From Candidatus Lloydbacteria bacterium RIFCSPHIGHO2_02_FULL_50_18 (lineage in GTDB: Bacteria > Patescibacteriota > Minisyncoccia > Phycocordibacterales > UBA6899): a DNA stretch of 57,064 bases. The position numbers and the translations under genes were made by a program. Shown piece after piece: positions 7,768 through 35,972 of this stretch (positions are counted from its first letter, which is position 1; every line of letters starts with the position of its first letter). Where the stretch lies: contig MHLM01000010.1 of NCBI GenBank assembly GCA_001821395.1, positions 1 to 57,064 of the forward strand, read 5' to 3'. Below the pieces are notes generated by a model. That model was not told the origin of the DNA. It saw only the letters and a list, made by a program, of their open reading frames with translations, and ran no database searches.

Positions 7768-7798
7768 AAACGCCATCCGGAACGGACGGCGTTTTTTT
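7768..7798 (+). terminator. Rho-independent terminator after the 7415..7759 gene
   Basis: GC-rich hairpin aacgccatccgg aac ggacggcgtt followed by TTTTTTT, 9 nt after the TGA at 7757-7759. Confidence 0.55.
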
Positions 7799-7912
7799 AT
7801 CCACATTTTTCAAACCCTACACCACACCGATCTCTTTAACGTGGGCATTCTTCATTAGAAAAACCTGCACATTAAAACATCCACAAAATCAGTACTACGC
7901 GTAGTAAAATTT

Positions 7913-7982
7913 CCAAATTGAGGTGCACCACAAGAGAACTTCATTTTTCTAAAACGGATTACCGTTAAGAAAAATTGGTCGC
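7913..7982. repeat. Intergenic repeat module A, copy 1 (contains the AACGG-ATTA-CCGTT hairpin); second copy at 17087..17151
   Basis: About 65 bp, ~85% identical to 17087..17151 (tgcaccac...acttcatttttctaa[a/g]acgg..taccgttaagaaaaattggtcgc). The stem ACGG/CCGT is conserved and the loop differs (atta vs ggta). Confidence 0.5.
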
Positions 7983-8060
7983 GATGCGAGGCAAAACAAG
8001 AGCACAAAAGTAAACTACGATAAAAGCTTTCACAATTTGGATGCGATTCGGCAAGTGCGC

Positions 8061-8162
8061 AATTTGGGATGAGCTGCGAGGCGACAAGGGGTGCGATGTC
8101 CGAGTGGACATACGTTGAGTATGTTCACCGGACTCGATCCCGCAGACAAAAAAGCAGATCGC
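8061..8162. repeat. Intergenic repeat module B, copy 1 (15-bp-stem hairpin GTCCGAGTGGACATAC/GTATGTTCACCGGAC); second copy at 17423..17523
   Basis: About 100 bp, >90% identical to 17423..17523 (gggatgagctgcgaggcgacaagggg.gcgatgtccgagtggacatac.ttgagtatgttcaccggactcg.tcc.cgcag...aagcagatcgc). Lies in non-coding DNA between convergent genes. Confidence 0.55.
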
Positions 8163-8178
8163 ACAAATTGCGTGCTTG

Positions 8179-9702
8179 CTACATGAGGAGCTTGCGGACG
8201 TCTTCCGCCTCTTTCGATATCAGCTCCTCCGAAAGATCGATCGCTTCATTGATGTTTTCCATGACCTCTCTGTCTTGAGCAGAAGGGTTCGGTTTTTGAA
8301 ATAAAGCTCCTGCCTGCTCCCCTATCTCCTCACGGAGTGCTGCAAAAATATTTCCCAAACTATCGCGGAGTTCATCCGCCTCACGTTTAGTGAGATACTT
8401 CTCTTTCCGAAACGCTTTTCGCTCATACCATAAATATCCGATCAGGAACGCAACAAGCGCAATAAGGAAAATGTTAGCGATAAGCGACCAGTCTGTTGGC
8501 TTTGGCGTATCGTCAACGGCGGCTTTTGCCGTCGCGGAAGGAACCTCTCCTTCGATCATAAACTTGCCGTCTACAGGAGTGTAATTCCCCGCTTTGTCAT
8601 AAGCCTTGAGCGTGGCGGAGTGCTCACCGGGTGTCTGGTTCGCTAGTGTATATTCACCATCTTTGATCTCGGCTAAGAGTATCTTTATCGGATTTCCCGC
8701 ATCAATGACAACTTCATAACGATCGATCCCCGACATCGTATCGGTTGCGGAGAATTTCATCTTTACATCGGTAGAAGAAGCGGGGACGGTAATATCCAGC
8801 GTGAATTCCGGTGGTGGCGTCTTGTCGACCATGATCTTTTTGTGCGTCACCGGACCCCAACCTCCTTCATTTTGATACTTCAAATGAAAGTACATCACCC
8901 CGTCGGTGAGTTGATCGAACTCCTTTTCATTGATCGCCGGATCGTAGCTCGTCTTAGGATCGGTCTTGGCACTCTTGTCGAGATCCATGCGCACGACCAT
9001 CACATCTGGCGGCAACTCCCACAAGAACCTTGCTTTGGGCGCATTGTAGTAAAGAGCCTCATCAGGATGAGATGTAGAAGTAACGTCCGGAGCTTCAGGT
9101 TTCGGTCCTAATGAGCCTACGTCGCCGCCCGAAGGAGCGGGAGGTGGTGGGGTGTTACTTGGAGCGGAGGCTGACACCGTATATGTGGCAATGCTTTTTG
9201 TACTTAAAATATCCGTACCTTTTCCGTCCGCCGCAAGTACAGAGCCCGTCGTGAAGGTGACATCGCTTTTCCCTTCTTTGACCCCCTTCAACGTGATGGT
9301 CAATATGGTCTTCTTTCCGGTAAGCCCGATCGTTCCCCCTCCGCCAAAGCTCAGTTTTCCTTCAGCGTTAGCAATGGTCGGCTCTTCCGGCCAGAATGAG
9401 AATGCTGAACTTGCCTTCGAGACACTTTCGAATGAAAGAATATTCTTATCAAAATTGATGACGGCATTCGCCGAGTTGAATGGTGCCGGCGACTCAACTG
9501 CAACAGTCACCGTAAGCGTCTTCCCTACCCCCATCGTTCCCGAAGGTGGACTGAACGAAAGCACCGCGCCCGTCGTCTGCACTTCTCCCGCCTGTTGCGC
9601 GAAAAGAATGCCCGGCGTACCGATGACCGCAAGTACGCAAAGGAAAATTCCAATAAGGCGTCTAGTAAGTGAGCGATGCATAAAGGTATGGCGGAGGAAC
9701 AT
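8179..9702 (-). CDS. Membrane-anchored surface protein: signal peptide, cohesin-like beta-sandwich domain, Pro-rich linker, C-terminal TM anchor, cytoplasmic coiled tail
   Basis: The ORF-track start at 9708 is GTG; ATGs at 9702 and 9681 both give MHRSLTRRLIGIFLCVLAV-type signal peptides. The N-terminal region GKTLTVTVAVESPAPFNSANAVINFDKNILSF...GKLSFGGGG...ILTITLKGVKEGKSDVTF matches the cohesin pattern. C-terminal hydrophobic stretch WSLIANIFLIALVAFLIGYLWY. Confidence 0.55.
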   Translation of the reverse strand: MFLRHTFMHRSLTRRLIGIFLCVLAVIGTPGILFAQQAGEVQTTGAVLSFSPPSGTMGVGKTLTVTVAVESPAPFNSANAVINFDKNILSFESVSKASSAFSFWPEEPTIANAEGKLSFGGGGTIGLTGKKTILTITLKGVKEGKSDVTFTTGSVLAADGKGTDILSTKSIATYTVSASAPSNTPPPPAPSGGDVGSLGPKPEAPDVTSTSHPDEALYYNAPKARFLWELPPDVMVVRMDLDKSAKTDPKTSYDPAINEKEFDQLTDGVMYFHLKYQNEGGWGPVTHKKIMVDKTPPPEFTLDITVPASSTDVKMKFSATDTMSGIDRYEVVIDAGNPIKILLAEIKDGEYTLANQTPGEHSATLKAYDKAGNYTPVDGKFMIEGEVPSATAKAAVDDTPKPTDWSLIANIFLIALVAFLIGYLWYERKAFRKEKYLTKREADELRDSLGNIFAALREEIGEQAGALFQKPNPSAQDREVMENINEAIDLSEELISKEAEDVRKLLM

Positions 9703-9708
9703 GGGCAC

Positions 9709-10224
9709 CTAGGTGGCGGAATCTACCCGCTCAACATGCATGCGCATCTTGTTTGCACTGTGACCCTTGAGCGGCAAATGAAGGACAAGGACACCGTCCT
9801 TTACTTTCGCTTGTGCGGCAGCTGCATCGACTTCTTGAGGAAGAATGATCTGTCTGAAAAATTTTCCCCATGCGCATTCTTCAAGAGTGAACCCGTCATG
9901 CTCTTCATCTTTGGATTGTACGCCCTGATTGATCGGTAGACTGCCTTCTCCCATGTGCGGCATAAGGTCCTCAGGCCGACGTGAGGTACCCTGGATCGTG
10001 ATGACATCATTGTCCCCTTCGATCGACACATCAATATCCTTGATCTCCGTTCCCGGCACCTGGGCATAGATCGTGATCTCAGTATCACCTTGTTCTACGT
10101 CGACCGGAAGCTGTGTCACGCCGGAAGGAATTTCCGACTTCGCAGGAAGATTAGCCGAGGAAACAGCATGGTCCTCCGAAACTCCGATTCCCTTCCCTTT
10201 GAGCTTTTGTAAAAAAGAACTCAT
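9709..10224 (-). CDS. Hsp20/alpha-crystallin family small heat-shock protein
   Basis: The alpha-crystallin core WGKFFRQIILPQEVD...AKVKDGVLVLHLPL is diagnostic of small HSPs. 171 aa. Confidence 0.85.
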   Translation of the reverse strand: MSSFLQKLKGKGIGVSEDHAVSSANLPAKSEIPSGVTQLPVDVEQGDTEITIYAQVPGTEIKDIDVSIEGDNDVITIQGTSRRPEDLMPHMGEGSLPINQGVQSKDEEHDGFTLEECAWGKFFRQIILPQEVDAAAAQAKVKDGVLVLHLPLKGHSANKMRMHVERVDSAT

Positions 10225-10410
10225 ATGATCAAAAAGTACAATTAACTAGTAACCCCAGCCTCCCTAAAACAAATTTCTAAAAGTTGTTCGGGCGAACATT
10301 TTTTATCAGAAAAAAATGTTTTAGCCCAAAATATTTACCACGGTAGAGTTAGATACATTATACGTGAGTTTACGAATGATGTGCAATGCATATGTGAACA
10401 AGAAGTGGAT

Positions 10411-10603
10411 ACCGCTCGGGTAATAACTTTTCGGAGCATATTTGCCCGCTGAGAGCGGTCGGGCAAAACCATCCTCAATATGAATGCCGCTTGCAAGGCC
10501 TAGCGGACCAAGCCATTCATCTGCAGGGGCAACTTTGTTTTCTTAAAAGCGTAGCGAATGAGAAATACAAGAAGTACCCTTGTGGCGCTCCGAAAGTCTT
10601 ACT
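10411..10603. repeat. Intergenic repeat D, copy 1 (candidate structured element); second copy at 23466..23671
   Basis: A ~120-bp core (CCGCTT..GCCATTC.TCTGC.GGGGC.ACTTTGTTTTCTTA...AG.GAAT.AGAAA.ACAAGAAGTACCC.TGTGGC.CTCC.AAAGT) is ~85% identical to 23555..23665. It carries the internal hairpin tttgcccgctgagagcggtcgggcaaa. Both copies sit immediately upstream of minus-strand genes. Confidence 0.5.
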
Positions 10604-10654
10604 TTCGCGTTCAGAGAAAATGCTTTGATCTTCACCCTATGAAGAAATAGATTT

Positions 10655-10690
10655 GTAGTATAAAAAAGGCGCTGTCTATACAGCGCCTTC
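10655..10690 (-). terminator. Rho-independent terminator downstream of the PmbA-like gene
   Basis: Hairpin aggcgctgt ctata cagcgcct (10667-10689), with the T-run on the minus strand (plus-strand aaaaaa at 10661-10666), 14 nt after the stop at 10703. Confidence 0.55.
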
Positions 10691-10702
10691 AAACATAACT
10701 AC

Positions 10703-12046
10703 CTAATCCCCTGCCACCATCATTTCATCGATCAAGCAGCTCGGGGCATTCGCTCCATAAGGATTATCGGAACAATCATCAGCCGGGATCATGTTCCGGA
10801 ACATCGCAAGCAAGTTCCCGGCAATGGTCACCTTATTCACCGCACGAACGATCTCCCCGTGCTCGATGAGAAAGCCTTCCGCTCCCACTGAATATGCTCC
10901 GGTCGCGATATTTGTTCCTCGACCCATGAGATCGGTGACGAGGAAACCCCGATCGATCTTGCGAATGAGCTCATCCAATGAATTCATCGAAGGACAGAGG
11001 AGCAGATTGAGTGCGCCCGATGCGTGCCCCGTTGATGAATGTAGACCAAGCTTTGAGGCGGACTCGATCGAGGTTGCCCACATCATGAGTCTTCCTTGGT
11101 CGGACAGCGTCCACGGCGTGGTCTTTACGCAATCGTCGTCAAAGAGCTCCGATCCTAGTCGACGCGGCAGATGCGGCTGCTCGATGATGCGCACGTCATC
11201 ACGGAAAATACGTGATCCGAGATGATCAAGCAAAAATGTCTCTTTCTGGTAGACACGTTCGCCACTAATGGCACCAAAGAACGCACCCAGCAGTCGCGGA
11301 GAAACTCGTTTATCGAAGAGCACTGGCATCGCTTCCGTTTTGATAGAACGCGCACCAAGCTGCTTCACTGCATACTCCCCTGCACGACGCGCACACTCCT
11401 CGTCTCCCATGAGATCGGCACAGTGGGTTGCCATATGCCAGTGCGATGACGATTTCATCTCGCCGGCTTTTTCTGCAATGACACTTGTGCTTTTTGAATA
11501 TTGCGTCGACGGTGAGACGACCGAGAAACCGTTCGACAAGAGTTGGACCGACATATCGCTTTGAAAACCAAAACTGGTTCCCTCGCTGCGGGCAATTCCC
11601 GGAAACGCACACGCACATCGGTCGAGCGCAAGCGCCCGCATCTTTAGCTCCTTCAGTGTCGGCGGCAGACTTCCGTCGCAACGATCCAGTTGTGCAATAC
11701 GCCCCGGAAGTTCCTCCACTCCACACGGCCATTCATCCGGCCGAGCGAGGCGAACATGTTTGTTCCCGCTCACCTGAAGGGCCGAAAGTACTGCTTCTTT
11801 TGCGGTACGCGCCAGATCATCGTTCTCGAACGAGGAACTGCTCGCATACCCGCGCCTATTTCCGACGATCGCCGTGACCATGAAACCCGCACTACTTGAA
11901 AATGCGACATCATCGAGCACACCATCACGCACGGTGACAGAACGTTCCGTCGATGTATCTACTGACACAACGGCGTCGGTTGCACCGGCACTCTTTGCAT
12001 GGCGCAGCAATTGCTTGCCGACACGCATCATCTCTTTTTGATCCAT
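10703..12046 (-). CDS. pmbA: PmbA/TldE-family metalloprotease (TldD partner)
   Basis: The sequence from MDQKEMMRVGKQLLRHAKSAGATDAVVSVDTSTERSVTVRDG onward matches PmbA. The ORF-track N-terminal extension (to 12160) is Arg-rich and overlaps tldD. The ATG at 12046 is preceded by GAGGGG, 10 nt after the tldD stop. Confidence 0.75.
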   Translation of the reverse strand: MDQKEMMRVGKQLLRHAKSAGATDAVVSVDTSTERSVTVRDGVLDDVAFSSSAGFMVTAIVGNRRGYASSSSFENDDLARTAKEAVLSALQVSGNKHVRLARPDEWPCGVEELPGRIAQLDRCDGSLPPTLKELKMRALALDRCACAFPGIARSEGTSFGFQSDMSVQLLSNGFSVVSPSTQYSKSTSVIAEKAGEMKSSSHWHMATHCADLMGDEECARRAGEYAVKQLGARSIKTEAMPVLFDKRVSPRLLGAFFGAISGERVYQKETFLLDHLGSRIFRDDVRIIEQPHLPRRLGSELFDDDCVKTTPWTLSDQGRLMMWATSIESASKLGLHSSTGHASGALNLLLCPSMNSLDELIRKIDRGFLVTDLMGRGTNIATGAYSVGAEGFLIEHGEIVRAVNKVTIAGNLLAMFRNMIPADDCSDNPYGANAPSCLIDEMMVAGD

Positions 12047-12057
12047 GATATCCCCTC

Positions 12058-13500
12058 TTATTCCGGTGATGTTTCTGTTCCGCCGACGGTCACTCCGCCG
12101 GAAAGTCGCAATGTCGGTTGGCCAATACCGACCGGCACGCTCTGCCCACCCTTGCCGCATGTTCCTGCGCCGCCAAGCCTGCTATCGTTTCCGACGAGGT
12201 CGACGTGCGTGAGCACTGTGGCACAGTTCCCAATGAGCGTTGCGCCAACGACAGGTGTCGTCAACTTCCCGTCCTCGATCTTGTAGGCCAGCTCACAACT
12301 GAACACAAATTGTCCCGTGACCGGGTCAACTTGTCCTCCGCCAAAAGATGGCATGTACAGCCCGCGTTTTGTTGCGGCAATGATGTCCTCGGGTGGCGTC
12401 GCGCCTCCCACCATCAATGTATTCCGCATGCGCACCTGCGTACGATATTCATACGACTCGCGGCGACCGCTACCGGTCGGACGCATCGCAAGCAATCTCG
12501 CGCTCTGTCTGTCATGCATGAAGCCGACCAACATGCCGTCTTTGATAAGTACGGTGCGTTCTGTTGGTGTCCCCTCATCATCGATGGTGAGTGACCCCCT
12601 CTCGTCTGCCAGCGTGCCATCATCAACGACCGTCACCAGCTCGCTTCCCACGCGCTTCCCGATAAGGTCCGCAAAGACCGTCGTCTTCCGCCATACACAG
12701 TCCGCTTCAAGCCCATGACCGATCGCTTCATGAAGCAATACCCCGGCCCAACCCGGACCCAGGACGACAGGCATGACGCCCGAAGGACACGGTCCCGCGC
12801 GAAGCATTTCTTTTGCATTCTTGATCGCGCGATCGACCTCAGGTTTCCAAATTCCGGGAGTGATGAGCCTTGCATAATCGTACCGCCCGCCGATACTTGC
12901 GGATGCACCTTCGCGCTTCCCACCTTCGGCACATTGCGCCGTGACGGACATACTCGCCATAGGGCGAACATCGCTCGCGATAGTTCCGTCCGCACGCACA
13001 ATGAGCACACTAACGAGACTTGCTGCAAAATATGCATCAACGTTCGTCACCGCTTTATCTTTTCGCGCATAACGGTCGATCGCACGGAGTACCTTCACCC
13101 GTGCCGCAAGCGACAGCGAAGTGAGCTTACCGGCATAACGAGCTTTCGGTTGCGGAAACTCTTCCCGCACCTCGTACCGCTGCTTTGCCGTTGCGATCTC
13201 GCGCAGCTCCTTGCCCGCGCGAATGATCGCCCGTGCAGTGATCGTATTACCGTGCGCATAGAGCACTGATTCTCCGTTCACGCGGCGCAGTCCAAATCCT
13301 TGGTCCACGCTTCGCGATGGAGATTCAATACGCCCGTCGTCAAGCGAAACACTTTCACTTTCCGAGCGCTCCAAATAGAGCTCTCCGTCTTCCGCACCCA
13401 AGAGTGCGCGCGTTACGAGCGCATTCATGCCCGCCGCATCAAGGCCAAGTAGCCTCCCGAAATAGCGGACGGGGTCGATCGCGTTATCAGTATTTTTCAC
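12058..13500 (-). CDS. tldD: TldD-family metalloprotease
   Basis: MKNTDNAIDPVRYFGRLLGLDAAGMNALVTRALLGAEDGELYLERSESESVSLDDGRIE... is a typical TldD sequence. GTG start at 13500 with AAGGAGA 5 nt upstream. Confidence 0.8.
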   Translation of the reverse strand: MKNTDNAIDPVRYFGRLLGLDAAGMNALVTRALLGAEDGELYLERSESESVSLDDGRIESPSRSVDQGFGLRRVNGESVLYAHGNTITARAIIRAGKELREIATAKQRYEVREEFPQPKARYAGKLTSLSLAARVKVLRAIDRYARKDKAVTNVDAYFAASLVSVLIVRADGTIASDVRPMASMSVTAQCAEGGKREGASASIGGRYDYARLITPGIWKPEVDRAIKNAKEMLRAGPCPSGVMPVVLGPGWAGVLLHEAIGHGLEADCVWRKTTVFADLIGKRVGSELVTVVDDGTLADERGSLTIDDEGTPTERTVLIKDGMLVGFMHDRQSARLLAMRPTGSGRRESYEYRTQVRMRNTLMVGGATPPEDIIAATKRGLYMPSFGGGQVDPVTGQFVFSCELAYKIEDGKLTTPVVGATLIGNCATVLTHVDLVGNDSRLGGAGTCGKGGQSVPVGIGQPTLRLSGGVTVGGTETSPE

Positions 13501-13651
13501 TCGCTTCTCCTTAAGATGAACGTTATTTCAACGTACGAAATCCTTGCTCAAACTAACACAACCGCCACCAAAGTCGAGGCCGATAATGCCGGGGTTTTTA
13601 AAAGATCCGCTTCTTCAACGAAGAACGGATGCACTTAAAAATAGAAGTATC

Positions 13652-13776
13652 GGGTAGCGTGTAATTTGCGATGCAGAACGCGAAGCAAACAAAACGTGAA
13701 ACGAGGCGTACTCGGAGTACGTTGAGTGAGCGTTGCAGTTTGCGACAAAGTGCTGCGCGCAAATTACACGCTACCC
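13652..13776. repeat. Long inverted repeat: perfect 19-bp arms GGGTAGCGTGTAATTTGCG/CGCAAATTACACGCTACCC separated by 87 bp, overlapping the stop codon of 13771..15531
   Basis: Arms at 13652-13670 and 13758-13776. The spacer has its own hairpin (gcgtactcggagtacg). The minus-strand transcript would have TATTTTTA 5 nt after the stem, so this may be an unusually long terminator or a MITE-like element. Confidence 0.5.
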
Positions 13777-15531
13777 TGTCCAGTTGGCGAGCATGATCGA
13801 AAAGTCCACAAGATTCACCGTCCCATCCTGGTTGATGTCTGACACAGGGTCTGCACCTTTCCAATTGAAGAGCAATATCGAAAAGTCGATGAGATTCACC
13901 TTCTTGTCTTTGTTCAAGTCTGAACGATTTGAAAAATCGGGATTCGGAGAGCCGCCTATCCCGATATAGACGATCGGACTCAAAAGACTCTGGTCTTTCT
14001 TAGAGATCTGCGAAAGGGCTTTCACTTCAAAGGTCCCCTTCAGCAGTCCATCAGTAGGCAGCGTCATGCTCCAAGAGCCATTCCCATTCGCTGTCGTTGT
14101 TCCCGTAACGATCTTTCCCGACAGGGCATTCCCCTGCATGTTCATGATCGCAAGCACGGGGACGAGTGGTGCCCCATAACCGCTTAATCGTATCGTGTCA
14201 CCAACACCGATGGTCGTTGAAGCGGCAGTGATCGTTGGAGAAACATACACGGGGGCGATGATATTGTTCGTGCGGGCGATAAGATAGATCGTCGAGGAAT
14301 ACGTTGAGGAGAGCCTGCCCTTTTCATCGCGCACATAGACCCCCCATGTATAAGTGCCACGCTGCAGGTCGGTGAATTTTTCCGAAAAATCACCGCTCTG
14401 CGAAACGGTTCCCTCTCGTACGATCACACCGTCTTTTAATATCACGAAGGCAGAGAGCGGCGCGGCCTTTCCTTCAAGCGTCACGTCACCTCCGTTCATA
14501 AAAAGACCACCACCACCACCGGGACCCGATATGCCACCGCCGCCGGGAGAAGCAGGAGGTGGTGGCGGCGGTAAAGGAGGTGTGCTGGACGCTCCCGGTT
14601 CGACGCCTACCTCAAAATAAATAAGCATGTCGTCCGAATTCGCTACCAACGATGGTGTCTGACACCGTACATAAAAACTATAAATGGTATTCGTTGCCAC
14701 CGCCTCGGAACGATAGTGAAGCGATCCAAAATTCGCTGCGGTAAAACTCGTACTCCCCAGCATGTTCGTGTAGAGCACTCCGCTCGTTGTCGCATAGCGA
14801 CATGTTGCCGGGATATCGGTATTGAGCGATAACCAAACATTCTGTGTGGTACCCGGCAACAGCCCAGAAGGAAGACCGTTGCTCCGCGTCGGTTCGAAGA
14901 TCGGCAGCTCAACCGAGATACCCACCGGGAGAATGATGACAACGACTGTTGATCCGAAATCCAATTCACCATTGAGTACATTAGTGGTCAAAAGACGCAG
15001 GTGGCGCGAACCGACCGAAGCGGGATTTTCAATCGATAAAGTTCCAACCCCGCCGAACGTCGCAATGTCACCGATAGTGATCTTCACCGTATCCCCCGCA
15101 AGAATTCCCGCTCCGGAAGCGAGCGAAAAGACAATCTGACCGGATGCACCGGAAGTAACAGCGACGCCGATATTTGCCGCACTTGGTGTCGCCGCAAGCG
15201 TACGGTTTGTGAATGGTCCGGACGATGTACCTGCAACAGACAGATCGATATCCAAAAAACTCAATGCCGCGGGAATGATAAACCCCTCAGTAGGGCTGAT
15301 CACAATATGTCCGCTTGGAGGTATCGCCGTTGTGGCAGTGAACTGAATGACATGTGAGGTCGTCGTCGCTCCGGGCGCTGAGTTCGATATGGTGTCACTG
15401 ACAAAAGAAAGCGTCCCCGCATACGCAAACGGGGTCGATATGAAAAAAAAGAAAGCAGCAGAAACCCCGAGTGCGAGCGAGCGTACATATCGGCGTTGTT
15501 GATTAAAATGATGTAGGGAAAATTGTCTCAT
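13771..15531 (-). CDS. Secreted protein with a Pro/Gly-rich region and a C-terminal type I dockerin domain
   Basis: Signal peptide at the N-terminus. The C-terminus DLNKDKKVNLIDFSILLFNW...DINQDGTVNLVDFSIMLANW shows two dockerin Ca-binding repeats (DxNxDGxVNxxD). A PPLPPPPPPASPGGGG linker is present. Confidence 0.7.
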   Translation of the reverse strand: MRQFSLHHFNQQRRYVRSLALGVSAAFFFFISTPFAYAGTLSFVSDTISNSAPGATTTSHVIQFTATTAIPPSGHIVISPTEGFIIPAALSFLDIDLSVAGTSSGPFTNRTLAATPSAANIGVAVTSGASGQIVFSLASGAGILAGDTVKITIGDIATFGGVGTLSIENPASVGSRHLRLLTTNVLNGELDFGSTVVVIILPVGISVELPIFEPTRSNGLPSGLLPGTTQNVWLSLNTDIPATCRYATTSGVLYTNMLGSTSFTAANFGSLHYRSEAVATNTIYSFYVRCQTPSLVANSDDMLIYFEVGVEPGASSTPPLPPPPPPASPGGGGISGPGGGGGLFMNGGDVTLEGKAAPLSAFVILKDGVIVREGTVSQSGDFSEKFTDLQRGTYTWGVYVRDEKGRLSSTYSSTIYLIARTNNIIAPVYVSPTITAASTTIGVGDTIRLSGYGAPLVPVLAIMNMQGNALSGKIVTGTTTANGNGSWSMTLPTDGLLKGTFEVKALSQISKKDQSLLSPIVYIGIGGSPNPDFSNRSDLNKDKKVNLIDFSILLFNWKGADPVSDINQDGTVNLVDFSIMLANWTG

Positions 15532-15566
15532 GGATCTCTGTTGTCACACGACACCGAAATGACCGA

Positions 15567-16508
15567 TCACTTCACACAGCGGAATCCGACGGCAGATCCG
15601 GCAAACGAAGGCTGAATTGTGGCGTTGATCGTAAAAATTCCCGCCTTGTCGGTCAAATTCCAAAATCCGCCGCGGAACATTCCTCTCACGCTATTCGGAT
15701 CAAGGAAGAGGTAGTCATCTCCAAATATCGCGGATGATGTTGCTGCCGTCTGCACGGGAACACCGTCCGTATCCGCCTCGGTGATATATCCCTCGGTCGG
15801 GAGTGGGTGCCCGTTGAGTGTCCCATCGACGACATTCGCGTCAACCCATTCCCACACGTTACCCACCATGTCATATGCGCCAAATGAGGAGACGCACCCG
15901 TCGTGTACTCCCGAGAGTTCAGCCTGACTCACGCCAACGCGCCCGAGGACGCACCCCGACTTCCCTCCATTCACCGTATCGGGAGTGCCAAGCGCAGCAC
16001 GATACCATTCTCCGGGAGCAGGGAGTCTCTTCCCTGCTCGTGCACATAGGGCCATTGCCTGAGAAAGAGAGGCATTCACCCACGGGTCTTTCCCTTTTAC
16101 TGATTCCGGCTTACACGTCGCAATCGCGAGATTCTCATTGGTCTGCATATCACTCGACGGGTGCACGCGCGGACACGTCAGGCCCGTCGTCACTTCGTAT
16201 CGGTCGATACAGAACCCTCCGAGAGAGGTAGGAACATAGACCATCTCCGGTGGGCAACGCAATACTTCCGTCGATCTTCCCGTTCCGGCAAGTAAGAGTG
16301 CATCGCTGATATGGAATGAGTCGCTTGCCTTACTCGCAAGCGTCGTCAGCAACATCGCACCGATCACGACGAGCGATCCTTTCCACAAACCACCTCCGCG
16401 CCTTTTCTTTGGCGGAAGAGTAGGCAACGGAGGCGCATACTGCACGCGTCCCTCTTTCCGAATGGTCAATCGCACCGGCGCGGGAGTGATGTGTGGTCGT
16501 TCGTGCAT
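15567..16508 (-). CDS. Formylglycine-generating-enzyme (FGE/SUMF1)-domain protein, membrane-anchored
   Basis: GNVWEWV, GGFWN and GFRCV motifs of the FGE-sulfatase domain, with an N-terminal TM segment. Confidence 0.65.
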   Translation of the reverse strand: MHERPHITPAPVRLTIRKEGRVQYAPPLPTLPPKKRRGGGLWKGSLVVIGAMLLTTLASKASDSFHISDALLLAGTGRSTEVLRCPPEMVYVPTSLGGFCIDRYEVTTGLTCPRVHPSSDMQTNENLAIATCKPESVKGKDPWVNASLSQAMALCARAGKRLPAPGEWYRAALGTPDTVNGGKSGCVLGRVGVSQAELSGVHDGCVSSFGAYDMVGNVWEWVDANVVDGTLNGHPLPTEGYITEADTDGVPVQTAATSSAIFGDDYLFLDPNSVRGMFRGGFWNLTDKAGIFTINATIQPSFAGSAVGFRCVK

Positions 16509-16514
16509 GTGATC

Positions 16515-16949
16515 TTATAATCGTGTGGTGAACTCGTCAGCGTGCGATGACACATGGCCTTCTACCGGCGTGTCACGTTTCCAGTCAAAATAAAAATTGA
16601 GCGAAATGAGCATGAGCAGGAGCCCCGTGATACCAAAAAGCACATTGAGAGTAATGCGATCGTTGCCGGAGAGGAGCGCCTGTTCACGGAGCGCGAGGTC
16701 TTGTTCACGCATCGTGAGCGACTTATCCTTTTGGTCGAACTGTGCGGCCAACGCATTGTATTCATTCGGTGCGACCGTTCCGGCGACCCCGATGATGCCG
16801 GCAATGTTCTCCGTTGCACGAAGCGCAATATTTTTGACTGGCGTCAAACCGGACAATGAAAGTTGTGCAAAAACAGCGATCATTACAAGAAGAAGTGCGG
16901 CGTATTGCACTGCTACTTTTGTATTCGGTTTATTCTCCCAAATGGCCAT
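16515..16949 (-). CDS. Small membrane protein (hypothetical), 2 TM helices plus a coiled-coil
   Basis: ATG-started ORF with hydrophobic segments. Co-oriented with the upstream FGE gene, 7 bp apart. Confidence 0.45.
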   Translation of the reverse strand: MAIWENKPNTKVAVQYAALLLVMIAVFAQLSLSGLTPVKNIALRATENIAGIIGVAGTVAPNEYNALAAQFDQKDKSLTMREQDLALREQALLSGNDRITLNVLFGITGLLLMLISLNFYFDWKRDTPVEGHVSSHADEFTTRL

Positions 16950-17086
16950 ATAGCGTCATTTTATGGCGAAAGTCGAGTCCAGTAAAGGTCTTTCACGCAC
17001 TGATCGTGCTAAATTTTAAAAAAATTAACCAAACGTTATACCATCCACAATTAACCATTTCCGAATAAGTTTCCAAGGAGAGACCT

Positions 17087-17151
17087 TTCAAGGCACCACC
17101 GGGAGTACTTCATTTTTCTAAGACGGGGTACCGTTAAGAAAAATTGGTCGC
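17087..17151. repeat. Intergenic repeat module A, copy 2
   Basis: See copy 1 at 7913..7982. Confidence 0.5.
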
Positions 17152-17222
17152 CAAGGACTCACCTTTGAAGCTTTCAGCATCAGAAAGAGTTAATTGGGGA
17201 TGGTATTTTTTTTTCGCTAGCC

Positions 17223-17279
17223 GATGACAAATATGCAGCTGTGGGCAAAGTCCCACTACTGCGTATTTGCTTTGGCGTC
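17223..17279. repeat. Hairpin module C, copy 1 (conserved flanks gatgacaaat / ttgctttggcgtc; stem atatgcagctgtggg/cccactactgcgtat; loop caaagt)
   Basis: Paired with 17544..17600. The flanks and the caaagtcc segment are conserved, while the stem sequences are entirely different but remain complementary in both copies. This is compensatory variation. Confidence 0.5.
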
Positions 17280-17422
17280 TCCAGTAAAAACTTTCATAAT
17301 TGGGATGCACCACGGGGGCACTTCCAATTTCATACTCCCTTCGGTCGGTGAAATTTAGGTCGAAGGACGAGGTGAAATCTAATCGTACTTTTTTATAGCA
17401 GAAGTACTCGAAAAAATACGAT

Positions 17423-17523
17423 ATTCGGGATGAGCTGCGAGGCGACAAGGGGGCGATGTCCGAGTGGACATACTTTGAGTATGTTCACCGGACTCGCTCC
17501 CCGCAGTCAACAAAGCAGATCGC
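17423..17523. repeat. Intergenic repeat module B, copy 2
   Basis: See copy 1 at 8061..8162. Locus 2 carries an extra ~115-bp insertion upstream that is homologous to 27238..27289. Confidence 0.55.
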
Positions 17524-17543
17524 CCGAATTTCGTATTTTAACC

Positions 17544-17600
17544 AATGACAAATTCATAGCATCAGACAAAGTCCAGATGCTATGAATTTGCTTTGGCGTC
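17544..17600. repeat. Hairpin module C, copy 2 (stem attcatagcatc/gatgctatgaat, 12 bp perfect)
   Basis: See 17223..17279. Confidence 0.5.
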
Positions 17601-17727
17601 GTGATGCTTTCAAATTGAGATGAAGAACGAGTTGAAATACAGATTTTGCTAGCAAGCCTTACTCCTGTAAGGTGAGGCGCAAAATCTGTATTTCAACGAA
17701 GTAATTCGCTCAATTTGGAAACATCAC
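17601..17727. repeat. About 127-bp imperfect palindrome with a perfect 18-bp inner stem (ttgaaatacagattttgc / gcaaaatctgtatttcaa) overlapping the stop codon of 17724..18788
   Basis: Outer arms gtgatgctttcaaattgag... / ...ctcaatttggaaacatcac are imperfect. The inner arms at 17631-17648 and 17678-17695 are perfect. No U-tract follows on either strand. Confidence 0.5.
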
Positions 17728-18788
17728 CCGAAATAGAAGAAGAGGATCAATAGTCCCACAATGATCGCAAACAATAACCCGATCGCCACTGCCGCCAAAC
17801 GCGAGATACCTCGCGCACCGCGCACCGCTCCCCCTCCGCGTGTACCCACCACTCCCGCTAACTGTCGACGCACATAGAGGCGGATCAAGACGTAGAGCAC
17901 GAGAATGAATGTGAAGAGTCCTCCAACGACCGGCCCGATGATGTTCATGGGGAGTATCCAGAATGATGTCACCGAGGAAATGGTCTGATTCCCTCCGTCA
18001 ACGAGAGGGATGACGAGCGCGACGACCGCCTCGAAGTGTCCGATCACAAATCCTTCAGGCTGCCACTTTACCTCATACTTTCCCGTACTATTCGGGGAAA
18101 TAACGTATGCGGTCTCATTGACGAGCAGTGATTCGACCTTCTTTCCGAACATATCGGTGATGTCGATCAAGCCTTGCGGTCGAGAAAGCGTATTCCCTTT
18201 ATTCTCCGCTTCAACGGTAAAGATCACGTTTGGAGAGCCGTAAATGAGCTTGTCGGTGAGGAATGCACGCATGCGTGTGTCTTCTTTGACATCACCCGCC
18301 ATTTGAAAATGAAGAATAGCCCCAATGTCAAACCCGACGGCAGAACCCTCCTTGAGATCGGGCGGTTTCTGCGTCAGAAACAATCCCGCAAGGTGTGAGC
18401 CGGGGCGCGCGTCAGCGGGAAATTTAACGGTAAAATGCAGCGTCGCACTACCGCCGGCAGGAACATCGAGCATTGATTCTGAATACGTGATCCACGACGC
18501 GAGCTCGGTCGCATTTGCATCGGCACCCTCCACGTAAACCGGCTGATGATCTAGAGCGATGGTGGCAATGTTCCGGGCAACGGGGTATAGCACAGTCCCC
18601 TGGTCGCCGCGATTTTCGACACGCATCGAATATGAGTGTTCCGAACTCGGCTCAACCTTATCTTCGATCGTCGTCGGGGAAAGATTAAAACTCACCTTAT
18701 TTTGCGCGAAGACCGCAAACGGCGTCATCAGCATGGCGGAACATGCGACAACAACAGCACCTCTTAATATCGTATTAGATCTCAACAT
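17724..18788 (-). CDS. Surface protein with signal peptide, beta-rich ectodomain, C-terminal TM helix and Arg/Gly-rich tail (DUF916/DUF3324-like architecture, assigned from memory)
   Basis: Signal peptide MLRSNTILRGAVVVACSAMLMTPFAVFA and C-terminal FWILPMNIIGPVVGGLFTFILVLYVLIRLYVRRQ. Paralogous to 24432..25817 and 25838..27109, which share the FWI(I/M)PW...TM motif. Confidence 0.5.
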   Translation of the reverse strand: MLRSNTILRGAVVVACSAMLMTPFAVFAQNKVSFNLSPTTIEDKVEPSSEHSYSMRVENRGDQGTVLYPVARNIATIALDHQPVYVEGADANATELASWITYSESMLDVPAGGSATLHFTVKFPADARPGSHLAGLFLTQKPPDLKEGSAVGFDIGAILHFQMAGDVKEDTRMRAFLTDKLIYGSPNVIFTVEAENKGNTLSRPQGLIDITDMFGKKVESLLVNETAYVISPNSTGKYEVKWQPEGFVIGHFEAVVALVIPLVDGGNQTISSVTSFWILPMNIIGPVVGGLFTFILVLYVLIRLYVRRQLAGVVGTRGGGAVRGARGISRLAAVAIGLLFAIIVGLLILFFYFG

Positions 18789-20523: not shown

Positions 20524-20547
20524 AGTGGACAACTTCCCCACAACAAA

Positions 20548-20592
20548 CAAAATACCCCGCCATATTGAAATAGGGCGGGGTATTTTATTTCT
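20548..20592 (-). terminator. Rho-independent terminator after paralog 2
   Basis: Hairpin aataccccgcc atattgaaatag ggcggggtatt, with a T-rich run on the minus strand, 16 nt after the stop at 20608. Confidence 0.6.
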
Positions 20593-20607
20593 TCTAGTAA
20601 ACTAAGA

Positions 20608-22980: not shown

Positions 22981-23350
22981 AAAGAACTAGTGGGATAAAA
23001 AACATCAAGTTGACGAAACTATGCGCAACGATCCACGAATTCTTGCTCCAACGTTCAGAAACTTGTTGTGACACGCACCTGCATGTCCTCGTTTTCCTCC
23101 GTCAGCGCACGCAGTCTGTGGATCATTATTCACAAGTTTTGCAACTTGGTGGGATGAATAATGGCAAACTGAACATTCCAACAAAAAATGCGCTATTCGT
23201 TCTTCTTCATCGGCGAGTGCCGAGAATAAGCCGAGACATTAAAAAACTTGTGGATCGTTTTTCAATGCAACAATTGGGATGGTGATTCCTCCTGTACCGT
23301 CGTCCTCGGAGTGTGGATATCCGAGAATACATAGAATGCACCTAGTATTT

Positions 23351-23406
23351 ATTATAACCTGCCTGTGGAAAAAGAGTGGACAAACTGTGAATAGCTGTGG
23401 ATAACT
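23351..23406 (-). promoter_or_regulatory. Promoter of paralog 3: a -10 TATAAT (plus-strand attata at 23351-23356) abutting a second copy of the TGTGGAWAA-repeat element (23362-23406)
   Basis: Same architecture as 20391..20446. Further TGTGGAT copies occur at 23115-23124, 23249-23258 and 23312-23321 between this promoter and the start codon. Confidence 0.5.
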
Positions 23407-23465
23407 TTCGCTCCAGATTTCACTATTTGAAAAACACATCATCAATTTTTCCAGCAAAAAATTGT

Positions 23466-23671
23466 GATTCCGCTCGGCGGGTCTGCTTCACCAAGAGGCG
23501 AAGACCATGCCAGACCCAGCTGCCTCCGCGAGGTTTTTCAAACAGTGAAACCCTCCGCTTCACAGAGTACATCGACCGAGCCATTCGTCTGCGGGGGCGA
23601 CTTTGTTTTCTTATGAACGAAGTGAATTAGAAAAACAAGAAGTACCCCTGTGGCACTCCCAAAAGTTTATC
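23466..23671. repeat. Intergenic repeat D, copy 2
   Basis: See 10411..10603. A flanking direct repeat c.ctccatagggagg occurs twice (23680-23692 and 23737-23749). Confidence 0.5.
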
Positions 23672-23775
23672 CTCGCTCCATAGGGAGGAACAACACCGTC
23701 GCGGTCCGTAGCCCCTCGAACAGTAATACCTCACTCCATAGGGAGGTCATTATTCATTCACTTATACCGGCCCTC

Positions 23776-24054
23776 CTATCGAAAAAGAGAGTCGTGTGAT
23801 CCCAAGTCAACGAGGAGAAGTACGAGTATACCCTCGTGCTTCTGATACACGAGCAGTATGTCATTCCCAACGTGGCACTCGCGATAATTCTTTAGATCAC
23901 CAGAGAGTTGATGGTCACGATACCCGGTTGAAAGCTTTTCTCCGACGGCAAGTGCGTCAATCACGACATCGAGATCATGCTGAACAAAATCCTTGTGCCG
24001 CAAAATCCGCTTGTATGCTTTTCGATATGCTTTTGTGGAGCGAACAATATACAT
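23776..24054 (-). CDS. relE: RelE/YafQ-family type II toxin (mRNA interferase)
   Basis: HQLSGDLKNYRECHVGNDILLVYQKHEGILVLLLVDLGSH matches the YafQ/RelE C-terminal catalytic region. 92 aa, 2 bp downstream of the antitoxin gene. Confidence 0.75.
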   Translation of the reverse strand: MYIVRSTKAYRKAYKRILRHKDFVQHDLDVVIDALAVGEKLSTGYRDHQLSGDLKNYRECHVGNDILLVYQKHEGILVLLLVDLGSHDSLFR

Positions 24055-24056
24055 AC

Positions 24057-24332
24057 CTAGCGATTGCCAAGAATGTCATCGTGCAATTCTTTTGCGGTAC
24101 GGTATGAGGGACCATGCTTGAGTGCATACTCTGCCTCCTTGATCAGCTGTCGTTTCTTCTTCGTCGGCCAGTAGTCGGCACTGACGACGGGAAACGGTAT
24201 CGCCTGTTTATTGACGACTTGGGTAAGATACAATTTCACCCCGGAGGACATATCGAGTCCCATTGCACTAAATGTTTTTTGTGCCAACTCTTTTGTTTTT
24301 TTATCAATGCGGATTTGTAGCGTGGTATTCAT
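24057..24332 (-). CDS. relB: RelB/DinJ-family antitoxin
   Basis: MNTTLQIRIDKKTKELAQKTFSAMGLDMSSGVKLYLTQVV is typical of DinJ/RelB. The ORF-track start at 24338 is TTG; the ATG at 24332 is preferred. Confidence 0.75.
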   Translation of the reverse strand: MNTTLQIRIDKKTKELAQKTFSAMGLDMSSGVKLYLTQVVNKQAIPFPVVSADYWPTKKKRQLIKEAEYALKHGPSYRTAKELHDDILGNR

Positions 24333-24359
24333 GGGCAAAGTGTACCCTCCCTCTGTTTG

Positions 24360-24395
24360 AGTGTCAATACAATGTAATTACACTATAAGTTCAGT
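24360..24395 (-). promoter_or_regulatory. Putative relBE promoter/operator with a perfect 10-bp palindrome TGTAATTACA (24373-24382)
   Basis: The palindrome lies 41 nt upstream of the relB ATG and overlaps TTGACA-like and TACACT-like hexamers. This is the expected geometry for an autoregulated TA operator. Confidence 0.4.
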
Positions 24396-24431
24396 TCAAA
24401 CTCCTCAACATTATGGGCAAGAGCCCTCCCC

Positions 24432-35907: not shown

Positions 35908-35924
35908 ATGTATTGCTCGCACAA

Positions 35925-35955
35925 AAAACCCCGCACTTACGTGCGGGGTTTTTTG
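35925..35955. terminator. Bidirectional rho-independent terminator between the convergent genes 35296..35907 and 35973..36281
   Basis: aaaaaa ccccgcac ttac gtgcgggg ttttttg. Confidence 0.7.
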
Positions 35956-35972
35956 TATGTTGGATCGCAATA

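Follow-up and report, generated by a model that had tools for sequence, protein, structure and literature searches.

A stretch of 57,064 nt from Candidatus Lloydbacteria bacterium RIFCSPHIGHO2_02_FULL_50_18 (contig MHLM01000010.1, positions 1 to 57,064; hereafter the window) carries four copies of an apparently undescribed hairpin family of about 130 nt. One of them, here termed copy B, is the palindrome at the end of the minus-strand gene 17724..18788 that the initial annotation had singled out. Eight further copies are found in other contigs of candidate phyla radiation (CPR) bacteria, which brings the total to 12. The copies belong to one homologous and consistently oriented family, in which the gene-proximal arm of the stem is host sequence including the stop codon of the upstream gene. 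Core types are common to different loci and genomes, while sites turn over and copies decay. With moderate confidence, the family is read here as a non-coding mobile foldback element, which is akin to the ERIC and REPIN repeats, follows a strand logic like that of attC sites and leaves a stop-codon hairpin on the host mRNA as a side effect.

A homologous and oriented hairpin family

Copy B is placed in the 3' untranslated region (UTR) of gene 17724..18788, whose product is a WxL-interacting-like membrane protein of 354 aa with the C-terminus ...FYFG*. The initial annotation described a 127-bp palindrome with perfect inner and imperfect outer arms, which is accurate apart from the inner arm length of 18 given there: the inner arms (17631-17649 and 17679-17697) measure 19 nt each and are 100% complementary, and the outer arms (19 nt each) are 89% complementary. 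The stop codon does lie inside the outer arm, but it is TGA and not the TAG that had been named. A 139-nt stretch over copy B folds at -67.6 kcal/mol on the plus strand (z = -10.9) and at -59.4 kcal/mol on the minus strand (z = -9.6), and none of 200 shuffled sequences reaches the folding energy of this region (Table 1).

A second gene, 13771..15531, had been said to end inside an inverted repeat with 19-bp arms, and this was found to be the case. The arms (13652-13670 and 13758-13776) are 100% complementary, and the TAG of the gene (13771-13773) falls within this copy, termed A, which folds with z = -7.8. Aligned on the plus strand, copies A and B are only ~57% identical. Common to both are unpaired and asymmetric motifs, namely GATGnAGAACG (left) and AAGTnnTnCGC (right), and 16 predicted pairs are kept via changes on both sides. 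The earlier suggestion of a shared element was therefore an understatement, as the two hairpins are members of one homologous family. Copies A and B were used to build a covariance model (R1), which gives copy B 143 bits and recovers two more copies in the window, C and D. A third gene, 8179..9708, thus ends in a palindrome overlapping its stop codon (copy C), and more such cases occur in other contigs. A second model (R2), built from 11 copies, matches the same four copies only and is strongly strand-specific, with 97.8 bits on the plus strand against 23.7 on the minus strand for copy A, 95.8 against 29.3 for copy B and 126 against 14 for copy C. Copies A to D all have the same orientation in the window. 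As had been noted for the first two, the host genes are unrelated and encode cohesin, dockerin and WxL-like surface proteins, the ribosomal proteins S10 and S7 and an M23 peptidase. The cohesin-domain gene 8179..9708 and the dockerin-domain gene 13771..15531 lie 4 kb apart on the minus strand, each followed by a copy, and all three host genes of the window (cohesin, dockerin and WxL-interacting-like) encode cell-surface proteins.

A composite sequence pattern matches exactly copies A to D in the window, all on the plus strand. In its relaxed form it gave seven matches in GTDB genomes and 13 in a metagenome collection that evidently lacks the window's own contig, which was not among the matches; two matches in each set are confirmed by the model and the rest are chance matches. 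The same relaxed pattern had no match among viral contigs. Copies I, J and K and the copy in assembly L045 were retrieved independently of the A to D pattern. Assemblies L039 and L045 are related Lloydbacteria, and L039, L041, L042, L044 and L045 carry orthologues of gene 17724..18788 (the B gene). The family is absent from Rfam 15: the whole window has no match at the gathering threshold, and a search at E<=5 over 7900-18000 returned two chance-level matches only. BLASTN found no match of copy C to plasmids or of copy B to phages, no tRNA or tmRNA genes were found in the window, and full-text literature searches found no description of this hairpin family. Another long inverted repeat of the window, at 23418-23550 in the intergenic region 22981-24431, has 18-nt arms that are 94% complementary and 97 nt apart. 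It was rejected as a family member, having no match to either model and folding better on the minus strand (-63.8 vs -46.5 kcal/mol).

Table 1. Copies of the hairpin family, orthologous sites and associated features; positions refer to the window unless an assembly or host is named, and for copies the strand is the better-folding one.
Feature	Position	Strand	Details
Copy A	13652..13776 (125 bp)	+	Perfect 19-bp basal stem plus core; dockerin protein gene 13771..15531
Copy B	17601..17727	+	Basal stem 17601-17619 / 17709-17727; core 17620-17708
Stop codon TGA of 17724..18788	17724..17726	-	tca on +; positions 2-4 of the gene-proximal arm of copy B
Copy C	8051..8181 (model match 8047-8183)	+	Contains TAG 8179-8181 of cohesin-domain gene 8179..9708
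Copy D	17411..17541 (model match 17407-17545)	+	Arms 17413-17429 / 17523-17539; second in tandem downstream of B
Copy E	MAG labelled Saccharibacteria		Directly after rpsG (S7), before fusA; pattern, model-confirmed
Copy F	Candidatus Lloydbacteria MAG		Between rpsJ and rplC, begins within the last rpsJ (S10) codons; pattern, model-confirmed
Copy G			After M23/LysM peptidase gene; pattern, model-confirmed
Copy H			After FN3-repeat protein gene; pattern, model-confirmed
Copy I	Giovannonibacteria		After rpsJ; synteny and models, pattern-independent
Copies K and J	L042		In tandem after 71% orthologue of the B gene; synteny and models, pattern-independent
K-type copy	L045		After 83% orthologue of the B gene; synteny and models, pattern-independent
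B-gene site	Window		Gene end GGG TGA; B-type core
B-gene site	L042 and L045		Gene end GGG TAA; K-type core, similar arms
B-gene site	L039, L041, L044		Gene end varies; no element
Decayed K-type remnant (...CATCCCAATTATGAAAGTTTTTAC)	17284..17324	-	96% identity to L039, 95% to L042
Decayed J-type remnant	17112..17151	-	Distal arm and flank; 95% identity over 40 nt to L042 3701-3740
Small 20-bp hairpin (GCAAATTCAT...ATGAATTTGT)	17546..17594	-	Between B and D
Intrinsic terminator	7768..7794	-	12-bp stem, 7 G-C pairs, then GTTTTT; ~250 nt downstream of copy C
Short hairpin and short U-run (UCUUUUAAAAA)	13607..13631	-	Downstream of copy A; -11 kcal/mol, z = -2.2

Read on the strand antisense to the upstream gene, the element is 125-139 nt long, folds with z-scores of -6 to -11 and consists of two parts, an asymmetric core of 90-95 nt and a locus-specific basal stem of ~19 bp. 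The stem length is counted to a bulged A; the basal arms span 16-24 nt, mostly 18, from the GATG anchor outward. The outer ~11 bp of this stem are different in every copy, yet paired, and the inner part carries the semi-conserved AAWTTnG / CnCAAWTT. The core follows with an invariant G-C, the bulged A, a U·G wobble (10 copies out of 11, with C-G in the other), a second invariant G-C, a variable helix of 5 bp and an invariant C-G, beyond which purine-rich internal loops lead to a variable apical hairpin. In the 11-member alignment, the 24 basal pairs are 90.5% paired as opposed to 64.6% after shuffling (no match in 500 shuffles), although alignments fitted to a model lean towards the structure of that model. 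Pairing falls to 31-42% if the partner is slid by 1-3 columns, and double changes occur at 19 of the 24 pairs. The apical region of copies A, E, F and H has the form 5'-CGA(G/A)...UGAG-3', which in the predicted fold can be read as a tandem G·A mismatch with C-G and G·U (A-U in copy H) as its closing pairs.

Several other identities were considered for the conserved core and rejected. A small open reading frame (ORF) starting from the conserved GATG would vary in frame and length by copy, with C and D frameshifted relative to each other, and no conserved reading frame exists. The hammerhead core (GAUGAG), box C/D and the kink-turn lack Rfam support and do not suit the structural context, and the same applies to domain V of group II introns, which was considered for copy F (GAGCCGUAU...ACGGU).

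The orientation relative to the upstream gene is identical in all 12 copies; as these represent ~7 independent loci, the two-sided probability of uniform orientation is ~0.016. In 11 of 11 copies the antisense strand is predicted to fold better than the sense strand, by 5-17 kcal/mol with RNA parameters and by 0.6-8.4 kcal/mol with DNA parameters. Unpaired positions on the antisense strand are purine-rich (0.61-0.85 in 10 of 11 copies), and G·T-type mismatches are more frequent on this strand (37) than on the sense strand (15; p = 0.003), with roughly 17 against 6 left by subtraction of the conserved sites. Taken together, the conserved asymmetry and the uniform orientation suggest that a folded single strand is recognized, which is the logic of attC sites, REPs and IS200-type ends.

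This asymmetry would also suit a small RNA gene with its own transcription, lying antisense to the upstream gene at its 3' end and having a 3' arm complementary to the stop-codon region of the mRNA. The enrichment in G·U, the tandem G·A mismatch and the purine-rich loops all lie on the antisense strand, as do the exchanges of U·G to C-G and of G·U to A-U. However, no conserved promoter or terminator flanks the copies (a promoter scan found no consistent promoter adjoining them), some copies lie inside co-transcribed ribosomal-protein operons, and such an RNA would have host coding sequence, different for each locus, at its ends. There is furthermore no relative in Rfam, and a small RNA gene is considered quite improbable.

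Host sequence in the basal stem

The gene-proximal strand of the stem consists of the last 0-4 codons of the host gene, its stop codon and the AAWTTnG motif, and this host sequence recurs as its inverted complement in the distal strand. The stop codon lies in the stem or abuts it in every gene-adjacent copy (A, B, C, E, F, G, H, I, K and the L045 copy), and in these copies the stable hairpin starts within 15 nt of the stop codon. The codons in the arm are native to the host genes. The C-terminus of S10 reads ...GVNIDVKMM* in 14 of 14 Parcubacteria homologues inspected, whatever lies after the gene; rpsG ends with a Trp codon and TAA, which lie within the arm of copy E; and the M23 domain match of the copy G host extends to within 2 aa of the C-terminus of the peptidase. 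FYFG* and NWTG* are also present in an orthologue without the element, and the orthologues of the B gene end in FYFG* in L039, L044 and L045 and in FAFG* in L042. It is therefore the distal arm that is the inverted complement of host sequence. L039 and L045 have the proximal arm of copy D (AAAATACGAAATTCGG) at the orthologous place but neither the core nor the distal arm of D, and an element-free orthologue of the B gene has AATTTTGG three nucleotides past its stop codon. A pre-existing ‘empty’ target of the form AATTTG-loop-CAAATT with outer pairing was not present in the sequences examined.

The position of the stem over the stop codon raises the question of a function in the mRNA. Specifically, the element may be a cis-acting RNA structure of the 3' UTR or intercistronic spacer that is selected by the host and spreads by duplication because it is useful, with the stop-codon hairpin insulating translation termination, blocking 3'-exonucleases or offering a site to RNase III. 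Besides the stop codon in or next to the stem of every gene-adjacent copy, this explanation draws on the copies within ribosomal-protein operons (rpsJ-rplC and rpsG-fusA) and on the precedents of stop-proximal REPs, the ribosome termination structure (RTS), ERIC and NEMIS (PMC12306157, PMC7518266, PMC2229807). The rpsJ-rplC spacers of five Parcubacteria (L009, L028, L029, L032 and L036) are unusually long (145-295 nt), and all five start with a hairpin of 130-150 nt at or overlapping the S10 stop codon, three of which are unrelated to the family in sequence; these suggest host-level selection for a hairpin at that site. Yet the three unrelated hairpins fold better on the sense strand, by 6-13 kcal/mol, whereas the conserved wobble, the tandem G·A mismatch and the purine-rich loops of the family favor the antisense strand in 11 of 11 copies, and a conserved asymmetry of this direction is not expected of a selected 3'-UTR RNA structure. 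In addition, the element is missing from close orthologues, the second-in-tandem copies D and J have no adjacent gene, and decayed copies persist nearby. A host-selected RNA structure is thus the main rival of the favored reading, though a rather unlikely one. The possibility of a 3'-end processing or stability element, which the initial annotation had raised, may still apply to the sense-strand hairpin as a consequence of insertion, as may a part in translation termination, but the conserved asymmetry favors the strand antisense to the mRNA. As a side observation, four of the five spacers (not L036) contain a conserved ATGACATTnCTnACTTAA-like motif before rplC, which may be the promoter of an rplC mRNA with a short leader or none.

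A termination element had likewise been proposed on the basis of the hairpins' location, and a stable hairpin directly 3' of a gene could indeed be an unusual intrinsic (or Rho-independent-like) transcription terminator. The absence of a U-tract after the palindrome, which had already been pointed out, holds for copy B, where the next bases on the mRNA strand are GACGCCAAAGC, and no U-tract follows the other hairpins. Canonical intrinsic terminators with a G+C-rich stem and a T-run lie further downstream: a terminator scan called none of the long family hairpins, and those terminators that it did call are canonical, downstream of copy C as well as at other places in the region. The short hairpin downstream of copy A is a weak terminator candidate for the transcript of the A gene, and the scan made no call there. 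Moreover, copies between rpsJ and rplC and between rpsG and fusA lie within operons. Termination by the hairpins themselves is therefore extremely improbable. In the window, the inverted repeats at 20542-20593 and 35921-35956, which read as bidirectional terminators, and the terminator-scan calls at 10665-10690 and 7768-7794 are canonical hairpins with a G+C-rich stem and an A/T run, and they show that the organism possesses ordinary intrinsic terminators.

Core types, site turnover and decay

The cores fall into the groups C/D/G, I/K, B/J and A/E/F, irrespective of locus or genome. The cores of C and D differ at ~6 of 97 aligned positions (~94% identical) and those of C and G, which come from different organisms, are 80% identical; in both comparisons the outer arms are unrelated. 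At the site behind the B gene, three states occur among the window and its relatives, namely a B-type core, a K-type core and no element (Table 1). The genes around the window elements are syntenic with a related metagenome-assembled genome (MAG) without the elements, and filled and element-free orthologous sites both occur, with flanks that have also diverged or become rearranged.

Downstream of copies B and D, which are spaced 50 nt apart, the window contains remnants of further copies. A spacer of ~450 nt on the minus strand (16950-17406), which appears ‘empty’, holds two decayed distal ends, one K-type and one J-type. In the K remnant, the distal arm is the ancestral, TAA-type version (GTAAAAAC...), whereas the distal arm of copy B fits the present TGA (GTGATG...). 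ORF 17134..17448 (104 aa, TTG start) overlaps the element remnants and is probably spurious; the JGI call is a 31-aa product over 355 nt. An APH (aminoglycoside-phosphotransferase-family) gene is located at 11428-12393 in L039 and at 4329-5288 in L045, where the window (~16950-17400) has element debris, so that this spacer, behind the B gene, has the appearance of an insertion hot spot. It also looks like a site of pile-up, at which the youngest copy would be the one beside the stop codon.

The same spacer harbors a second, smaller repeat. The hairpin between B and D is a member of a local repeat GCCAAAGCAAAT...ATTTGTCAT, of which a second copy in the window lies at ~17218-17280 on the minus strand. 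The repeat (GACGCCAAAGCAAAT-stem-loop-ATTTGTCATYGG) is conserved at its base, varies at its top and is confined to one intergenic spacer, where it occurs twice in the window and three times in L039 (11108-11330), always adjoining copies or remnants of the large element.

Arms that are near-perfect and track changes of the host strand, including the one from TAA to TGA, could also result from replication alone. According to this explanation, the palindrome is kept and enlarged purely by template switching (quasipalindrome correction) with no dedicated mobility or function, and the similarity of cores reflects local duplication and gene conversion, in line with the clustering of four copies and remnants within 10 kb and beside a local tandem small-hairpin repeat. 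Related cores, however, follow unrelated genes in a Saccharibacteria-labelled MAG, in Giovannonibacteria, in Lloydbacteria and in unassigned contigs. The nearly constant length of the basal stem (arms of 16-24 nt, mostly 18) is a further point against purely replicative growth, and neither the conserved asymmetric module nor the uniform orientation is predicted by neutral palindrome growth. This explanation is accordingly judged distinctly unlikely.

The favored reading of a mobile foldback element develops one option of the initial annotation, an inserted palindromic mobile element, which now has the better support: there are core types that recur at unrelated loci and in unrelated genomes, orthologous sites that lack the element or contain a different core, and decayed copies downstream. 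The mobile unit would be the core, which would land immediately 3' of AAWTTnG beside the stop codon. Complementarity of the distal arm to the host sequence upstream would arise, or be preserved, through intrastrand templated copying (template switching) or else in the course of the insertion reaction. New insertions would displace older copies downstream, where decay would follow, and one folded single strand would be recognized by a putative trans-acting enzyme. The host mRNA would in turn gain a hairpin of ~-44 to -68 kcal/mol, which starts from the stop codon, with the real terminator located further downstream. Such a hairpin should, in analogy to ERIC, NEMIS, stop-proximal REPs and RTS, alter 3' decay, RNase processing or translation termination. 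A more specific proposal is that insertion makes an inverted copy of ~17-19 nt of upstream host sequence instead of a direct duplication, such that the stem is built from the last codons of the host by a putative CPR recombinase acting on a bottom-strand hairpin. This mechanism is offered tentatively and is itself unlikely.

A number of observations weigh against mobility. No filled and empty pair with identical flanks was found, and insertion can consequently not be separated from precise deletion. The window encodes no transposase, integrase or reverse transcriptase, and the ends of the palindrome show no target-site duplication (TSD), direct repeat or TA in the nine copies that can be anchored. 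The copy number looks low, with the strict pattern finding one site in each of two GTDB genomes, and the copies are deeply diverged, as the comparison of A and B illustrates. The retrieval of copies E to H by a pattern derived from A to D makes the conservation of motifs in these four copies partly a matter of construction, and the strand preference consists of predicted energies. Orientation to the gene is confounded in the window with orientation to replication. Lastly, long hairpins without relation to the family occur at this rpsJ stop codon in other Parcubacteria, which suggests host-level selection for a hairpin there.

Relation to known elements and significance

The closest counterparts in kind are the palindromic repeats of other bacteria. 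ERIC/IRU, a 127-bp enterobacterial element, and Correia/NEMIS are, like the present family, non-coding imperfect palindromes of ~100-150 bp which reside in transcribed intergenic regions and form one long stem-loop, and the size of ERIC is almost identical to the 125-139 nt measured here. NEMIS transcripts are cleaved by RNase III, ERIC contains an RNase E site, and the effects on the flanking mRNA depend on orientation (PMC2229807). In contrast to the copy-conserved terminal inverted repeats (TIRs) and TA target duplication of ERIC and Correia, the outer ~11 bp of the family are host-derived and neither a TA nor a direct repeat is present. The family further differs in abutting the stop codon and in having CPR bacteria as hosts, and there is no sequence similarity. 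In being a non-coding unit of less than 200 bp that folds as a single long stem-loop, the family does resemble bacterial MITEs. Examination for the conserved termini of a miniature inverted-repeat transposable element (MITE) showed that the outer 11-bp arms are unrelated even where cores are 80-94% identical, with only the subterminal AAWTTnG semi-conserved. A canonical MITE was rejected, as the termini are not conserved between copies and no TSD exists.

REPs and REPINs resemble the family as hairpin-forming, non-autonomous repeats at the 3' ends of genes. A REPIN is an inverted doublet that forms a long hairpin and that a RAYT enzyme mobilizes in trans in the form of single-stranded DNA (PMC3116915, PMC3337134). 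REPs at most 15 nt from a stop codon are described as stalling ribosomes and lowering expression (PMC12306157, citing its reference 17). The family has neither a GTAG/CGTC tag nor a REP unit of 20-40 nt, its copy number is apparently low, and its stem incorporates the coding end of the host, which is not described for REPINs. Assignment to REP/REPIN was rejected, there being no conserved GTAG or CGTC at the foot of the stem; the GGGTAG of copy A is the Gly codon and stop codon of its host. A RAYT (Y1 transposase) is not encoded in the 57-kb window. RTS, i.e., stable mRNA structures immediately downstream of stop codons (PMC7518266), represent a statistical folding bias of ordinary sequence and should favor the sense strand, as the unrelated S10 hairpins do. 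The family, by contrast, is a homologous repeat of ~130 nt with a conserved core and favors the antisense strand. TIGR-Tas arrays were dismissed, since there is no tandem guide-array architecture.

In strand logic, the family is closest to attC sites, whose structure is conserved more than their sequence and in which an extrahelical base and purine-skewed unpaired regions favor folding of the bottom strand (PMC5027507). Both lie at the 3' end of an ORF, often with the stop codon, and have the antisense strand as the favored fold; the bulged A, the purine-rich unpaired positions and the antisense strand predicted to be more stable in 11 of 11 copies are the analogues in the family. The element could be an integron-type attC site or another gene-cassette boundary, which a tyrosine recombinase would recombine as a folded bottom strand. 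Its length is in the attC range. Furthermore, GC skew is negative over most of the plus strand (cumulative -1.28), which puts the better-folding strand on the inferred leading-strand template, where the bottom strand of attC is also found in sedentary chromosomal integrons (PMC5371416). Inspection of the sequences, however, revealed none of the RYYYAAC / GTTRRRY core sites that define the attC consensus (R''/R' RYYYAAC ... GTTRRRY; PMC5027507). Variable host sequence forms the stem base and gives way to AAWTTnG / CnCAAWTT, with no AAC/GTT pair where one is required, and an attC site was rejected as an identity. No intI or attI occurs in the window, and the genes on either side, which comprise syntenic core genes (rpsJ and rpsG among them) as well as surface-protein genes, do not form a cassette array. 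The elements come and go while the genes stay, and a cassette boundary is highly improbable. The family is thus closest in kind to ERIC, NEMIS and REPIN repeats and in strand logic to attC, and it differs from all of them by a stem built out of 3'-terminal sequence of the host gene.

Apart from the hairpin family, the window contains tandem TldD/PmbA-family metallopeptidase genes on the minus strand (10703..12160 and 12058..13500). Their longest ORFs overlap by ~100 nt, and the true start of the downstream gene, which public gene calls give as 447 aa, is probably internal.

The genomes of CPR bacteria (Patescibacteria) are small, streamlined and thought to be poor in repeats, and to our knowledge almost nothing is known about their non-coding elements. 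As far as Rfam and the literature searches show, the family would be the first described structured repeat of CPR bacteria. A core held in a host-derived stem fits neither the rule of TIRs plus TSD for MITEs nor that of tag plus RAYT for REPINs. If the arms are made at insertion, this would point to a recombination mechanism not known before, and an inverted copy of the target, if true, would constitute a new mode of transposition or site-specific recombination with the strand logic of attC but without an integron. If the arms are instead kept by selection, this would point to stop codons being widely buried in helices of ~19 bp, including those in ribosomal-protein operons, which would have consequences for translation termination and mRNA decay. 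In either case, the covariance model is of practical use for recognizing spurious ORFs, 17134..17448 being one example, as well as insertion hot spots in MAGs of CPR bacteria.

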